From the NCBI RefSeq assembly GCF_003334405.1, contig NZ_QOWM01000003.1: DNA of 64,000 nt; one strand, given 5' to 3'. Below are positions 28,571 to 35,145 of this stretch, piece by piece (within the stretch, counting starts at the first letter, position 1; every line of letters starts with the position of its first letter). The position numbers were made by a program, and so were the translations under genes. Origin of the DNA: Escherichia coli (GTDB taxonomy: Bacteria; Pseudomonadota; Gammaproteobacteria; Enterobacterales; Enterobacteriaceae). The notes below the pieces were generated by a model, which saw only the letters and a program-made list of their open reading frames with translations, did not search any database and was not told the origin of the DNA.

Positions 28571-29590
28571 ATGAAAAGCATATTAATTGAAAAACCGAAT
28601 CAACTGGCGATTGTCGAACGTGAAATACCCACCCCGTCAGCGGGTGAAGTACGAGTAAAAGTGAAACTTGCCGGAATTTGTGGTTCAGATAGCCATATTT
28701 ATCGTGGGCATAATCCTTTTGCGAAATATCCGCGCGTCATTGGTCATGAATTCTTTGGCGTCATTGATGCAGTGGGTGAAGGCGTGGAAAGCGCCAGAGT
28801 CGGTGAACGTGTTGCTGTCGATCCGGTGGTCAGCTGTGGGCATTGCTATCCGTGCTCTATAGGTAAACCGAACGTTTGTACGACACTGGCTGTATTAGGT
28901 GTGCACGCTGACGGTGGTTTCAGTGAATATGCCGTGGTTCCGGCAAAAAATGCGTGGAAAATTCCTGAAGCAGTGGCCGATCAATATGCGGTAATGATCG
29001 AACCTTTTACCATTGCGGCTAACGTAACCGGACATGGTCAACCGACTGAAAATGATACCGTTCTGGTTTATGGTGCCGGTCCAATCGGCCTGACGATCGT
29101 TCAGGTATTAAAAGGCGTCTATAACGTTAAAAATGTGATTGTTGCCGATCGCATTGATGAACGACTGGAAAAAGCGAAAGAGAGCGGGGCTGACTGGGCG
29201 ATTAATAACAGCCAGACACCGCTTGGCGAGATTTTCACTGAAAAAGGCATCAAGCCGACATTAATTATCGATGCGGCTTGTCATCCTTCTATCCTGAAAG
29301 AGGCCGTAACGCTGGCTTCTCCAGCGGCACGTATTGTATTGATGGGGTTCTCCAGTGAACCGTCTGAAGTGATTCAGCAAGGAATTACCGGAAAAGAACT
29401 CTCTATTTTCTCTTCACGCTTAAATGCAAATAAATTCCCGATCGTTATCGACTGGTTAAGTAAAGGGTTAATTAAACCAGAAAAATTAATTACCCATACG
29501 TTTGATTTCCAGCATGTTGCTGATGCCATTAGTTTATTTGAACAGGATCAAAAACATTGCTGCAAAGTCTTACTCACTTTTTCTGAATAA
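28571..29590 (+). CDS. rspB: Zn-dependent alcohol dehydrogenase family starvation-sensing protein
   Basis: Start at ATG 28571 (MKSILIEKPN...), 339 aa; GICGSD and GHEFFG zinc-ADH motifs; start overlaps rspA 3' end region. Confidence 0.9.
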   Translation: MKSILIEKPNQLAIVEREIPTPSAGEVRVKVKLAGICGSDSHIYRGHNPFAKYPRVIGHEFFGVIDAVGEGVESARVGERVAVDPVVSCGHCYPCSIGKPNVCTTLAVLGVHADGGFSEYAVVPAKNAWKIPEAVADQYAVMIEPFTIAANVTGHGQPTENDTVLVYGAGPIGLTIVQVLKGVYNVKNVIVADRIDERLEKAKESGADWAINNSQTPLGEIFTEKGIKPTLIIDAACHPSILKEAVTLASPAARIVLMGFSSEPSEVIQQGITGKELSIFSSRLNANKFPIVIDWLSKGLIKPEKLITHTFDFQHVADAISLFEQDQKHCCKVLLTFSE

Positions 29591-29647
29591 TACCAATAAC
29601 GGCGAGTAAGTAGTACGCATCTTACCTCTTTTTTAGAGATAACCATT

Positions 29648-29758
29648 ATGACAATAGAAAAACACGAAAGAAGCACTAAGGATTTGGTGAAAGCAGCAGT
29701 ATCGGGATGGCTGGGCACTGCGCTTGAATTTATGGATTTCAAGAGTCATGCGTGTTAA
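29648..29758 (+). pseudogene. ydfJ: 5' fragment (about 30 codons) of MFS transporter gene ydfJ, truncated at the prophage junction
   Basis: ATG 29648 gives MTIEKHERSTKDLVKAAVSGWLGTALEFMDF, then diverges into KSHAC-stop at 29756-29758; the integrase 3' end lies 20 bp beyond. Confidence 0.6.
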
Positions 29759-29777
29759 CTATTTGATAAATATTAAA

Positions 29778-31073
29778 TTAATTTTTCATTGCTTCGTTAT
29801 GGGGCATGGTTGGGGCAAACTCGCTTAACTGTGTATTTAACAAAGCTACCTGTGCATTATTGTTTTCAGACATCCATTTTCCGTATACCTGAAATACCAT
29901 TTGCGCATCTGCATGGCCCATCTGGTTTGCTATAAATGCCGGGTTAGCACCAGCTGTCAGCGACCAGCAGGCATAAGTATGTCTCGACTGATATGATTTT
30001 CGATGGCGGAGTCCGGCACGTTTTATCGCTGCGTCCCACATCTGCCTTATTGAGTCAACGGTAAAATGGTCACCATAATTTTTTACTCTCGCTGACACTT
30101 CAGGTTGAAAAACAAAGGTGCATTTTTGTTTTTCTGTTCTGCCATACTCTCTGAGGTGAACATCAATGATATGCTCTTTGCTCAGTCTCGTTAATGTCAT
30201 CTGACTCCGGAGAGCGTCGATTGCTGGCTTAATAAGATGAATGACCCGATTGGTTCCCGCCTGTGTTTTTGGTACCGTGAAACGGTCTTTTGCTAAATTT
30301 CTCCTGATCATCATTGTTCCATTTTTCAGATCTATGTCCTCCCATCCAAGTGCACACAGCTCACCAGGGCGAACTCCAGTATAAACAGAAACACACCATA
30401 AATTTTTTGCTTGCTGATTTCTGCACGCATCGATAAGACGGATAAATTCTTCCCGCGAAAGAGGATCCGGAATGGTTCTTGATTCCTTTAATGGCGAGAT
30501 CCCCTTAAACGGATTATCTGCCAGGTAACCGTTATCAACACCAAACTGGAACACGGCGTTAAGATTTGTCATGTAATTATTTACAGTTACAGCCGATCTC
30601 CCTGGTTGTGTAACAATATAGTTACTTTTGGGGATCTGGTATCCAGTCAGTAACTCTTTACGAACCTCCAGTAATTTTTCTTTATTAATCGATGAGGCAA
30701 GATTTTTTTCACCGATTATGCTCAGGATATTTTTGATGACGGCACGGTATGTGTTGAGTGATGTTTTGGCGACTTCAGTTTCTTTCAGTGCCAGAAATTT
30801 TTCAGCCAGTTCTTTTATGGTTAAATCTTGTCGGGCCTCACCAAATTTTTCCAGATTGCGTGAGGAGGGAAACTGTTTTGCATAGTCGAAAACACCAGTT
30901 TTTATTGCGTAACAAACAGAGGAGCGTAGTTCACCTGCAACGCGCCTGTTTTTTGCTGTGTCAGGAACCCCCAGATTTTCCCTGACTCTTACGTCTTTAT
31001 AAACAAACCAGATACGTAATTTCCCTCCATGGTTTTCCACGCCTGTCGGATATTTCATTTCAACTTCTCTCAT
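29778..31073 (-). CDS. Lambdoid tyrosine integrase (apparently full length)
   Basis: 431-aa ORF with catalytic-domain motifs YTGVRPGELCALGWEDIDL, HTYACW and GHADAQMVFQVYGKW; real start may be the ATG at 31058 (MKYPTGV...) which has a GAGAAG upstream. Confidence 0.85.
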   Translation of the reverse strand: MREVEMKYPTGVENHGGKLRIWFVYKDVRVRENLGVPDTAKNRRVAGELRSSVCYAIKTGVFDYAKQFPSSRNLEKFGEARQDLTIKELAEKFLALKETEVAKTSLNTYRAVIKNILSIIGEKNLASSINKEKLLEVRKELLTGYQIPKSNYIVTQPGRSAVTVNNYMTNLNAVFQFGVDNGYLADNPFKGISPLKESRTIPDPLSREEFIRLIDACRNQQAKNLWCVSVYTGVRPGELCALGWEDIDLKNGTMMIRRNLAKDRFTVPKTQAGTNRVIHLIKPAIDALRSQMTLTRLSKEHIIDVHLREYGRTEKQKCTFVFQPEVSARVKNYGDHFTVDSIRQMWDAAIKRAGLRHRKSYQSRHTYACWSLTAGANPAFIANQMGHADAQMVFQVYGKWMSENNNAQVALLNTQLSEFAPTMPHNEAMKN

Positions 31074-31092
31074 TAGTTAGTGTGGCTTTTAG

Positions 31093-31344
31093 TCAAGTAA
31101 GATGACGTCTTGGTCTCGCTGATGCCTGGCGCTCAATCCAGCGATCAATTTCTTCCAGGTTGTAAAAGCATGGACTGTTATCCCATGGCATACCGTCATG
31201 AGCGACATGCTTATATTCCCTTCCTTCCATAAACGATTTTTCCCGGGCCTTTTTTAACGTACCTTTTTTTATTCCTTTCAGCGCAATTAACTGCTCTTCG
31301 GATACCCATTTGCCGGGAGAGACAATCATGATTACTTCGCTCAT
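31093..31344 (-). CDS. Excisionase-like protein
   Basis: 83-aa ORF immediately upstream of int on the same strand; GREYKHVAHDG resembles the lambda Xis GREYLFHESA region. Confidence 0.55.
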   Translation of the reverse strand: MSEVIMIVSPGKWVSEEQLIALKGIKKGTLKKAREKSFMEGREYKHVAHDGMPWDNSPCFYNLEEIDRWIERQASARPRRHLT

Positions 31345-31416
31345 CGATTTCTTTATCTCTTACATCAGACGAGCGCCGGTTGCAGAATACCAGTCACAAC
31401 CGGCGACAGTTGAACA

Positions 31417-33315
31417 TTAAGAATCAGCCTGACTCGGGATCAGTTTTTGCCAGATAACTGAAACGTATTTTGCCTGGTAACGGGCGTCATCAAGTGCATT
31501 ATGGCGCTCACCTTCGAATGGAATAGCCGTTCTGGCATCGAAGTCTATGGCTTTCCCCAGCTCAACGATTGTGCGTACATCGCGATCGTTGTAGTAACGC
31601 CACGGGCAGGGGATCCCCTGCCGTTCGTATGAACGGCGCAAAATCGTGTTGTCGAAGTTGGCTCCATTTCCCCAAACCTGAACAAAAAATTCACCGGAGT
31701 TTTCGTCGATAAATTCTCGCAATTGTAACAGTGCATCATCTAACGGGATTTCATCGGTCATAATGGCAGATTGCGCTTCGCGTGATTGCTTAAGCCACCA
31801 TTTAATGGTGTCCCGATCAATGACTCCGCCAGCAGTTTCCAGATCGATAGTCTTACTAAATTCCGGTCCCATATCTCCGGTTTGCGGATCGAAAAATATT
31901 GCACCTATTGAGATGATCGGGGCATCAGGATTTTTTCCCATGGTTTCAAGGTCGATCATTAGATGGTCACACGTCCTGCTGGTGGATGTGATTTCGTGAT
32001 GACCGTTCACCTTAATTGGGTGATCTGCCGTCTCGCCAGTTTCATTATCGCTATTGTGATGCTGATTGCCGCCAGTGTTCTCCTTGTGTGGATGTTCAGC
32101 GCCTTCCATTTCCTCCGGATCATCTTCCTGAACTTCAACCTGATACTCTTCATCGAATGTTTCTTGGTATGTTGCGTCGCCCATCACCGCGCCACAATCA
32201 GGGCAGTTGCCGCCGCCGGTCTGACCGCAGGCGGTGCAGACTTTTTCCACTTCCTGTTGCGCTACTGGTTCAGGCTGTTTCGTTTCTGGCTCGTTTTGTA
32301 ACGCATTTGGACTGTTTTGTTCCGCTTTTTGGTAGTTCCGTTCCGATTCATGCTGGTTCTGGTTCACAGAATCGCGGGTCTGGAGCCCCTTAACCCATTT
32401 CGGATCATTCGGGTCACTAATCCCTTCAACAAATTCACCACGTGATGCAGCAAGCAACTTATCGGCGTCAGGCTGGCTGATATTGGCTGCCTGCATAATT
32501 TTGTTTACTTCGTCAGCGGTAACTTTTATCGGCTCTGGTTGTTCTGAATCTTCAGCGGTATCTACATTTTGCGGTAAGCCCGTGTATGTGCCATTTTTTC
32601 GGGCAAAATATTCTTCTTTTGTGATTTCAGTGGCGCCAGCAGCCAGTGCCTTATCCAGACCAGAGAGTTTGTTTGCGCGACCGTATTTTTCTCCGTCCTT
32701 ATCTGCGAAGAGGAAATAGAACGGCCCCTCACGCTCTACAGATGGTTCAGCTTCCGGCGCGGTTTCATTTTTTGGGATATCAGATACCTCAGTTTCCACT
32801 GCATCAGTTTGTGTTTCTGATGACTGGAGAACATCAACAGTGCCCAGGTCTGTTTCTTCATTCTCAAACACGCCCTTTGTCGTCAGGTATTCGCAGATAT
32901 ATTTGTTCAGTGCTACGGGATCTTTGTGAATGTCGATCGGACGCTCACGGACAAGGCCAAAAATAGTTTGGCGGTCGTAGCGAAGGGCATCAGGCTGTTT
33001 GCGCATTGATGCCGAGATACGCTTCCAGTCTTCGCGGTCGTTGTCGATAACTTCTTTTTTTGCCCAGCGATGGATGCTGCCGTCAATGTTTCCGGCATCC
33101 ACATCACTAGGCCAGAGAGCGTAGGCCAGTTCGTCATCCAGTGTTTTCCATGTCTGCTTGTATTCGCGATGAATGGCAGCAATGACCGGGCTGATTTTTC
33201 CTGTTGAATTTTCAGTGTACTGTTGATTGGCTCTGGCGCGGGCGAGATCAACAACAGACGTGTATTTTCCGGTTTCCTTGCGTTCACCTTCGCGACGTTT
33301 TTTCCAGATGCGCAT
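31417..33315 (-). CDS. Phage exonuclease with C-terminal DnaQ-like (DEDDh) 3'-5' exonuclease domain
   Basis: C-terminal MIDLETMG ... WGNGANFD ... HNALDDARY motifs; central CTACGQTGGGNCPDCGA zinc ribbon; long Glu/Asp/Gln-rich linker; 5' end uncertain (first ATG at 33315; the track ORF extends to a TTG at 33450). Confidence 0.6.
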   Translation of the reverse strand: MRIWKKRREGERKETGKYTSVVDLARARANQQYTENSTGKISPVIAAIHREYKQTWKTLDDELAYALWPSDVDAGNIDGSIHRWAKKEVIDNDREDWKRISASMRKQPDALRYDRQTIFGLVRERPIDIHKDPVALNKYICEYLTTKGVFENEETDLGTVDVLQSSETQTDAVETEVSDIPKNETAPEAEPSVEREGPFYFLFADKDGEKYGRANKLSGLDKALAAGATEITKEEYFARKNGTYTGLPQNVDTAEDSEQPEPIKVTADEVNKIMQAANISQPDADKLLAASRGEFVEGISDPNDPKWVKGLQTRDSVNQNQHESERNYQKAEQNSPNALQNEPETKQPEPVAQQEVEKVCTACGQTGGGNCPDCGAVMGDATYQETFDEEYQVEVQEDDPEEMEGAEHPHKENTGGNQHHNSDNETGETADHPIKVNGHHEITSTSRTCDHLMIDLETMGKNPDAPIISIGAIFFDPQTGDMGPEFSKTIDLETAGGVIDRDTIKWWLKQSREAQSAIMTDEIPLDDALLQLREFIDENSGEFFVQVWGNGANFDNTILRRSYERQGIPCPWRYYNDRDVRTIVELGKAIDFDARTAIPFEGERHNALDDARYQAKYVSVIWQKLIPSQADS

Positions 33316-33373
33316 CTCTGCCTGAATTTCGGGCCATTTAGCACCAGGAATACATTTATGCTTAACCCACCCA

Positions 33374-33640
33374 ATGGCGTGCAACTTAAGCTCCGGATAC
33401 GGGTTATTCCCCTCTGAACAGGCGCGTAAGGACTGGCAAAACGCCCGCAAAAAACTCTCGAGGGCAAAGGTGAAGAAACCTGCTGTGGTTGATCCGGACC
33501 TTATCTGGTCATCACCTGACGGAGAAATACGTCGCTACGACAGTCGCCTAAACATAATCTGTCGCGAGTGCCGGAAGAGCGAAGTTATGCAGCGCATACT
33601 GGCTTTCTATCAGGGTAATTTTCAGGACGTGGCGCAGTGA
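33374..33640 (+). CDS. Hypothetical small basic protein
   Basis: 88-aa ORF; stop overlaps the GTG start of the downstream methyltransferase fragment (GTGA); no recognisable SD. Confidence 0.3.
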   Translation: MACNLSSGYGLFPSEQARKDWQNARKKLSRAKVKKPAVVDPDLIWSSPDGEIRRYDSRLNIICRECRKSEVMQRILAFYQGNFQDVAQ

Positions 33641-33993
33641 GTGCACCGGCAACCATTCTTGATATGTGCTGTGGCAGCCGCATGTTCTGGTTCGATAAGT
33701 CTGACGAACGGGCGATATTCAGCGATATCAGAAAAGAAGGATACACATTACGCAATGGGAGACGCTTGATTATCAGCCCTGACATTATCGCAGATTTTCG
33801 TGCATTATCATTTGCAGACGCATCTTTTTCGATGGTTGTATTAGACCCTCCGCATCTTGAGAGTGTTGGTGATAACGCCTGGATGGGAAAGAAATATGGA
33901 CGGCTGAATAAAGATGCCTGGCGTGATGATTCGCGACAGAGATTTAAAGAAGCCTTTCGGGTGTTGAGGCCGCACGGCGTTCTGATTTTTTAA
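33637..33993 (+). pseudogene. DNA methyltransferase, probably 3'-truncated
   Basis: 118-aa ORF with ILDMCCGS (SAM-binding motif I-like) and VVLDPPHLES (DPPH, catalytic motif IV of N6A/N4C methyltransferases); ends shortly after motif IV. Confidence 0.45.
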
Positions 33994-34255
33994 TGGAATG
34001 AAACGCAAATACCGGTAAGCCAGATTCTGGCACTGACAGACAGAAAACCTGTTATCTGTCAACGAACAGGGAAAAAACGATAAAACCCACTGGATTATTT
34101 TTATGAAAGAGGCATCCAGTGAGTAGATTCGTAAGGCTACAGATACGTATATCTGAATAATTAAATTCAGTTCTGTAAATAAAATTTAATCCTTAACCGG
34201 ATGGATTTCTGCACCCTCAGAACATCAGGAGGCCGCCCGAAAGGGCGGTAGTGAA

Positions 34256-34890
34256 ATGCGAAAGTTCAAAATTATTATTGAAACGGGAATAGCTGGTGGA
34301 GATTTTGAGGATGTATTCGAAGTGGACGATGACGCAACACCTGAGGAAATTCATGACGGAGCATAAGAAATTTTCTTTAACTACTGCAATTACTCATACC
34401 ACGAAATAAAAGACGATGAGGAAGAACAAAGTGGCTGATTTTTGTTCAGCTAAATATAACATCAGTTTTGAAGAGCGGGATGAACTATTAATGGACTATG
34501 GTGAGTTACGCGGTGGAAGTGCTGCTGATGTCGAATCCTAGCGTGATGACTATGAAGCGGGAAAAACTCCGGTCGAAGCATATTGTGATGAGTGGGGCGA
34601 TGAATGAGCGAGATTAATTATCAGGAAGGGCATGAAACGGCGGGGCAAGCAAAACCAGTGGCATGGCGATATCGCTACGTGAAAAAAGGCGTTACGGACT
34701 TTCAGGGGAAGTAGTGGTCTGGTGACTGGAAATATGTACCGAAAAAAGAGGATTGTAACGACAGGCCGAACTATCAAATTCAGGCCTTATTCACTGCCTC
34801 ACCAGTCCCAGTTACATCAGAAGAACTGGTTAAAGCTGTGCACTTTTATGAACAACTAAAACGCGAAAATCCACCAACATCCGGCAACTA
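34256..34890 (+). pseudogene. Decayed run of small early-region ORFs interrupted by in-frame stop codons
   Basis: Three consecutive reading frames each continue in-frame across a single stop (TAA 34364-34366, TAG 34539-34541, TAG 34710-34712); the second and third are linked by an ATGA overlap. Confidence 0.3.
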
Positions 34891-35145
34891 GATTAATGGA
34901 TTAACTATGTCGGTTAAACGACCAGCCAACTGAAAAAGCGGAAACCTGATTACAGGTTGCCAGATAAGGCAATGAGCTACCTGGCGCGGAACGGACTGAT
35001 AAGTATGGGGAATGTTTTACGATGAACCTTTAGACTAAAGAGTTTGTAACGCTATGTAAGTGATTTTTTCTGGTTTAGATATTTATATGTCCGGCCAAAT
35101 TGAGGTGTGTTTAAATGTAATTGCACATTGATTGTAGGAGGAATA

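Follow-up and report, generated by a model that had tools for sequence, protein, structure and literature searches.

The two overlapping ORFs at positions 33374-33993 of the window, the 64,000-nucleotide stretch of Escherichia coli DNA analysed here, are very probably non-functional gene remnants left by ordinary decay in a Qin-type defective lambdoid prophage beside rspAB. Both lie on the plus strand: an 88-aa ORF with an ATG start (33374-33640) and a 118-aa ORF with a GTG start (33637-33993), with an AGGA 9 nt 5' of this GTG. The stop of the first overlaps the start of the second by 4 nt (GTGA, 33637-33640), and the ORF list places int (29778-31073), xis (31093-31344) and a long exo ORF (31417-33450) on the opposite strand. 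In the ORF pair, its overlap and orientation, and the ILDMCCGS and DPPH motifs of the longer ORF, the locus is as the original prediction described it. Because the 88-aa ORF matches PHROG 142 (E=3e-20) and the 118-aa ORF matches PHROG 954, 'DNA methyltransferase' (E=7e-58), both are judged to hold true coding sequence, far above chance.

By its gene content, the locus is the Qin prophage site of E. coli, occupied by a Qin-type defective lambdoid prophage adjoining rspAB. At the identical locus of PK6, the RefSeq order is rspA, rspB, integrase, excisionase, partial 3'-5' exonuclease, partial DUF977 and class I SAM-dependent methyltransferase, followed by a DUF7167 pseudogene, a frameshifted hypothetical gene, an ISNCY transposase, ydfW, flxA, ydfV, relBE, hokD and rem. 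The Qin prophage of K-12 (rspB-intQ-ydfE ... dicB-dicA-dicC-ydfX-ydfW-flxA-ydfV-relBE-hokD) has the same insertion site beside rspAB and agrees with the window on the flxA-ydfV-relBE side, and the exo DNA that ydfE and the window have in common is 100% identical. In contrast to the window, K-12 Qin still has the dicB-dicA-dicC immunity region but, owing to IS2, no xis and only a small part of exo, and it carries neither lygF nor a methyltransferase, whereas in the window int, xis and most of exo are kept and the immunity region is deleted. A megablast search returned one near-identical relative among phage records, PhiR42_1 (PV340562.1, host ECOR13), which has the same int, xis, exo and lygF, and a methyltransferase gene with the same two lesions as the window copy. 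Its annotation lists a 'LygF protein' of 140 aa and a 'methyltransferase protein' of 118 aa, 3' of cI, cro, cII and the replication O gene. Unlike the window, it keeps 4,610 bp at its positions 4688-9297.

The 118-aa ORF (33637-33993, +) corresponds to the N-terminal 118 codons of a methyltransferase pseudogene and ends at a premature TAA. Its residues 5-118 align with positions 52-165 of the 229 of the PHROG 954 profile (E=6.7e-58), with ILDMCCGS at residues 7-14 (motif I, LDMCCGS) and DPPH at residues 70-73 (motif IV), and L8, D9, C12, G13, D70, P71, P72 and H73 are all kept. This match and the alignments to intact alleles bear out the proposal of a truncated SAM-dependent methyltransferase, although a profile search of the ORF against Pfam gave only non-significant hits to Methyltransf_11/25. 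Intact E. coli alleles of the family share 85-90% DNA identity with the window copy, together with the same N-terminus, motif I (LDxCCGS) and DPPH, and they occupy the same place after DUF977 with the same 4-nt overlap. What sets the window copy apart is its premature stop (codon 119), its +1 frameshift and the replacement of four conserved residues.

A DNA alignment with two intact alleles showed exactly two disabling changes in the window allele. The first is a nonsense mutation at codon 119 (33991-33993, +), where TAA replaces the AAA of intact alleles, coding for a lysine (K119) that is kept in 98% of the family alignment. The second is a +1 insertion at 34069-34071 (+), where intact alleles have GG and the window has GGG. 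The C-terminus that the original prediction had expected to find further 3' is indeed there: its remains (33994-34126, +) read WNETQIPVSQILALTDRKPVICQRTGK in the same frame after the TAA and, with a one-base shift, NDKTHWIIFMKEASSE up to a stop codon. When conceptually repaired in this way, the window methyltransferase aligns end to end with the intact allele of P0001. Comparison with intact homologues, which translate to 157-163 aa in the alleles examined, confirmed that the window copy is short by virtue of its stop and frameshift, with approximately 44 C-terminal residues missing from the ORF. The expectation that a full enzyme would need more was correct for these residues and mistaken for a target-recognition region, which the intact homologues (~155-170 aa) do not have.

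If the stop and frameshift were assembly errors, or were bypassed by programmed recoding, a full-length enzyme would result. The frameshift does lie in a short homopolymer context (GGGAAAAAA), but identical lesions are present in hundreds of independent complete genomes and in the phage record, recoding would need TAA read-through plus a -1 shift 78 nt later, and a conserved residue further downstream is mutated as well (G141C). We regard the probability of such an explanation as negligible.

A weak terminator-like hairpin (33959-33982, +, with a T-run to 33992) overlaps the nonsense codon, and the change from AAA to TAA lengthens its T-run from five to six. We judged it to be a chance feature and not a real terminator, given its weak stem and the presence of four such sites in the region against 1.3 ± 1.4 expected.

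The stop removes a conserved part of the protein. In a search of representatives at 50% identity, the conserved core extended from query residue ~6 to ~158; the 118-aa ORF does not span it, and the remainder lies past the stop and out of frame. Beyond the stop are K119, W120, P138, G141, W152, F155 and K157, all invariant or nearly so in a 60-sequence family alignment. The intact E. coli protein was modelled by AF2 with a pLDDT of 94.7; in the model, the stop lies within the strand formed by residues 110-121, before a helix (127-131) and two further strands (138-144 and 150-156). A product that ends there would be cut off within one beta strand and would have neither the helix nor the two final strands that follow, and would probably be inactive because the C-terminal part of the Rossmann-like sheet is absent. 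The window allele also carries P58S, F69L, G102R and G141C, each at a column where 88-95% of family members agree. Nonsynonymous and synonymous changes number 18:17 in the window lineage as opposed to 8:25 in the intact lineages (Fisher p=0.026; parsimony over three sequences, the window and two intact alleles, and hence small counts), an excess that is consistent with relaxed selection on the window allele.

These data bear on whether the 118-aa fragment might be a maintained, functional short protein that, for instance, binds SAM, acts in regulation or forms half of a split enzyme. Alleles at least 95% identical to it occur in ~480 of 5426 E. coli genomes, its 118 codons are kept open behind a plausible ribosome-binding site, and it is both a PGAP CDS and part of a deposited phage genome. 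Nevertheless, the fragment is missing seven residues that are invariant or nearly so, together with at least three secondary-structure elements of the Rossmann-like core, and has accumulated four further substitutions at conserved columns as well as the nonsynonymous excess. A second, independent lesion lies 3', and the C-terminal piece is covered by no ORF. The adjoining genes have decayed too, no promoter-like site is left upstream after the deletion described below, and vertical inheritance of the Qin prophage explains the wide distribution of the allele. We consider a maintained function quite unlikely.

Several further observations concern the DNA 3' of the methyltransferase. Decayed genes lie at 34256-34366 and 34416-34860; at the identical locus of PK6, PGAP annotates DUF7167 with an internal stop and a hypothetical gene with a frameshift and an internal stop, and the ORF list of the window shows short fragments only at 34256-34860. 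No RNA family falls within the ORF pair at 33374-33993 in an Rfam scan that covered 29000-38500. The scan did detect the sok antitoxin RNA (RF01794, 104 bits, E=2e-23) at 35415-35586 (+), directly 5' of an ISNCY-family transposase gene. No intact hok-like ORF was seen beside this match, and the insertion element may have disrupted the partner toxin gene, or the gene may have been lost. The transposase ORF itself (35660-36973, +, 437 aa) is intact in the window, whereas its PK6 counterpart is annotated as partial, missing the C-terminus.

The original prediction had pointed to the opposite orientation of the ORF pair relative to int-xis-exo. The orientation is real, as those genes do lie on the other strand, but it is not a design feature of the locus: it is the product of a deletion that fused two operon remnants. 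By blastn, window positions 29725-33400 correspond to PhiR42_1 1013-4687 (99.97% identity) and the window from 33391 onward corresponds to PhiR42_1 from 9298 onward (99.7% identity), and the 4,610 bp of PhiR42_1 in between (4688-9297) are absent from the window. The overlap of the two blastn segments defines the junction as a 10-bp microhomology, CTCCGGATAC, at 33391-33400. A three-way alignment of the window, K-12 ydfE and PhiR42_1 lygF showed that CTCCGGATAC is present in exo and has one mismatch in the phage lygF (CTCCGGCTAC). On the PhiR42_1 annotation, the DNA missing from the window comprises the first ~163 codons of exo, ydfD, ydfC/ydfB-like genes, cI (dicA), cro (dicC), cII, O and the first 58 codons of lygF. 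The identical junction was found in 90 of the 5426 complete E. coli genomes. The head-to-head orientation is a deletion scar, where the remnant of a leftward operon (exo-xis-int) abuts that of a rightward one (cro-cII-O-lygF-methyltransferase).

Both ORFs that cross the scar have artificial starts, because these were created by the junction. On the minus strand, the Rac/Qin-type, 'exodeoxyribonuclease VIII'-like exo remnant (31417-33400) is without its first ~163 codons; the exo CDS of PhiR42_1 occupies 2704-5175, PGAP marks the PK6 exo at the identical locus as 'incomplete; missing N-terminus', and the TTG 'start' (33450) of the 677-aa exo ORF of the window sits in lygF-derived DNA. On the plus strand, the 88-aa ORF (33374-33640) is a chimera whose codons 1-6 are antisense exo and whose remainder is LygF residues 59-140. 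Its ATG is a fortuitous start, because this codon and the next five are antisense exo DNA. The ORF is indeed small and basic (K or R in 16 of 88 residues, with a basic patch at residues 17-35), and its residues ~7-88 are truly coding. However, these are only the C-terminal 82 residues (3' 60%) of lygF/DUF977, and not an intact partner gene.

Full-length LygF (140 aa) matches DUF977 (PF06163) over positions 1-134 of 134 (E=9.5e-29) and PHROG 142, 'Ren-like exclusion protein' (E=1.6e-47), whereas the 88-aa ORF covers only positions 59-115 of the PHROG 142 profile and does not contain the full-length domain. The 58 N-terminal LygF residues that were deleted also match phrog_2391, annotated as 'DNA binding protein'. 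PGAP describes the PK6 counterpart as 'DUF977 family protein, partial, missing N-terminus'. On these sequence comparisons, the 88-aa ORF is a gene fragment. Our literature search found no functional study of LygF/DUF977; the name lygF occurs there solely to label an ORF in genome notes on Salmonella.

The overlap between the two genes is older than this damage. The 4-nt GTGA overlap that led to the proposal of translational coupling is present in the window, where the upstream gene is without its own start, and also in PhiR42_1 and in E. coli 2014C-3599, and agrees with that proposal as far as layout goes. It is the native arrangement in intact relatives, and by this comparison the DUF977/methyltransferase overlap is ancestral. 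Nevertheless, each gene can occur without the other: in E. coli, DUF977 is mostly followed by other genes, and the methyltransferase is found without DUF977, behind unrelated genes, in an Stx2c phage and in Enterobacter, Enterococcus, Listeria and Salmonella phages.

This variation also weighs on the suggestion that the pair could belong to a restriction-modification or anti-restriction module as its modification half, in which the small basic protein would be a controller or specificity partner. The tight 4-nt overlap does recur in several E. coli prophages, and the intact enzyme itself lacks a target-recognition domain. In contrast, no endonuclease gene adjoins the pair in the window or in the intact relatives examined, neighbours vary among phages, most DUF977 genes of E. 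coli stand before other genes and the methyltransferase occurs without DUF977 in the phages named above. The label 'Ren-like exclusion protein' of PHROG 142 is annotation only, and in the window the small gene is itself truncated. With no partner gene and a variable neighbourhood, we reject such a module as very improbable. The other possibility offered by the original prediction, the remnant of an orphan phage methyltransferase, is borne out.

In 2014C-3599, the DNA 3' of the intact DUF977-methyltransferase pair encodes a 'sce7726 family protein' and a convergent 'beta family protein' (2297-3488 of the piece examined), which might form a phage-carried accessory or defence cassette.

The distribution of the gene gives a relative order for the decay. 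The methyltransferase gene is present in 901 of 5426 E. coli genomes, ~480 of which carry the allele of the window (at least 95% identity) and ~420 alleles that are 80-95% identical. All five of the latter that were checked (Stx2c_EH0430, 2014C-3599, P0001, P0003 and P0004) are intact. The C11 allele (98.8%) has both lesions and lies behind an intact DUF977 gene and replication genes; PGAP describes it as 'frameshifted; internal stop'. Likewise, the methyltransferase of PhiR42_1 has both lesions and no deletion. The lesions would thus predate the 4.6-kb deletion, because they are common to prophages that still have their immunity region and because the junction occurs in 90 genomes as opposed to ~480 for the allele. 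The RefSeq treatment of the doubly mutated gene is inconsistent: it is a CDS, WP_001310834.1 (118 aa), in many genomes and a pseudogene in others.

The intact relatives indicate what was lost. Members of PHROG 954 are minimal class I SAM-dependent enzymes of ~155-170 aa with no target-recognition domain, such as those of Enterobacter phage Mulvp2 (gp5, 155 aa), Enterococcus phage phiEf11 (ORF50, ~153 aa), E. coli 2014C-3599 (157 aa) and the Stx2c_EH0430 phage (~163 aa for the homologous part of an intact reading frame). By tblastn, relatives occur in 252 phage records that span many phyla, with hosts that include Streptococcus, Vibrio, Acinetobacter, Porphyromonas, Listeria, Gordonia and Enterococcus, as well as in a haloarchaeal virus. 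A search of 5.8 billion proteins yielded 5,683 clusters (90% identity) at E<=1e-5, of which the close ones are 155-170 aa long, with some 248-aa forms. The AF2 model of the intact 161-aa E. coli protein consists of a catalytic core only.

Other members of the family are shortened as well. The 'putative DNA methyltransferase' of Salmonella phage vB_SosS_Oslo (1489-1960 of the piece examined) is apparently frameshifted independently after about residue 92, its annotated product being 125 aa long and its tblastn match falling in two pieces, and lengths of 110-130 aa are seen in several further database representatives. This gene may have decayed repeatedly.

As regards the assignment to DNA methyltransferases, the class I methyltransferase part is sound, whereas the DNA substrate comes from annotation: the family is labelled 'DNA methyltransferase' by PHROG and by depositors only. 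In Pfam, the truncated and the intact protein gave only non-significant matches to Methyltransf_11/25 and none to N6_N4_Mtase, N6_Mtase or MethyltransfD12. NCBIfam had nothing over its cut-off for the methyltransferase, and a PDB sequence search with the single protein gave no match. A 60-sequence profile returned weak, generic PDB matches, to PH0226 (E=8e-5) and, at E>0.2, to the RsmD-like HI0767 and to Trm11. M.TaqI, Trm11, TrmN/TrmM, RsmC/RsmD and PrmC are among the structural neighbours, and share a class I fold, a motif I that precedes motif IV, and a DPPx tetrapeptide following strand 4. Taken together, the searches of Pfam, NCBIfam, PDB sequences and folds support an assignment to the generic class I fold and nothing more specific; the intact family has no Pfam model and no solved structure, and our literature search found no functional study of it and no paper on DNA methylation by its members.

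The (D/N/S)PP(Y/F/W/H) motif is characteristic of enzymes that methylate exocyclic or amide nitrogens. By analogy, the invariant DPPH after strand 4, with motif I before it, points to N-methylation of a nucleic-acid base as the most probable activity of the intact enzyme. We give only a slim chance to the intact family acting on something other than sequence-specific DNA, be it through non-specific DNA methylation, an RNA or protein target, or the need for a partner. In a weaker version of this reading, the common 118-aa fragment would keep a SAM-binding role; the window copy lends no support to activity.

The history that best accommodates these observations would start from an ancestral phage resembling PhiR42_1, with a rightward early operon cro(dicC)-cII-O-lygF(DUF977)-methyltransferase in which the lygF stop overlapped the methyltransferase GTG (GTGA). 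The methyltransferase of this ancestor would have been a minimal (~160 aa) class I SAM-dependent enzyme with the invariant DPPH and no target-recognition domain. Decay would have begun with the change of K119 from AAA to TAA, the +1 frameshift at 34069-34071 and several substitutions of conserved residues. Subsequently, a 4,610-bp deletion between the 10-bp microhomologies would have brought codon 59 of lygF up to the middle of exo. It would have taken the 5' ends of exo and lygF and the repressor/cro region, the presumed site of both early promoters by analogy with lambdoid phages. A simple-consensus scan found no sigma-70-like site on either strand of 31300-33650, a result with which weak promoters or read-through remain compatible, and we infer that the ORF pair is not expressed.

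The reading of the pair as dead remnants agrees with the PGAP pseudogene flags on the neighbouring exo, DUF977, DUF7167 and hypothetical genes. Against it stand the PGAP CDS WP_001310834.1 in many genomes, the good AGGA-N9-GTG start that is kept, and the frequency of the allele, which also occurs in a phage record submitted as a complete genome. The sequence would still be compatible with residual expression, or with a function for the N-terminal fragment.

Most of the pieces are flagged in public annotation as partial or as pseudogenes. The locus is a textbook case of prophage decay, with point lesions followed by a microhomology-mediated deletion of the immunity region, and carries little biological weight of its own. 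Its wider interest is confined to the substrate of the intact, very widespread family of minimal methyltransferases.
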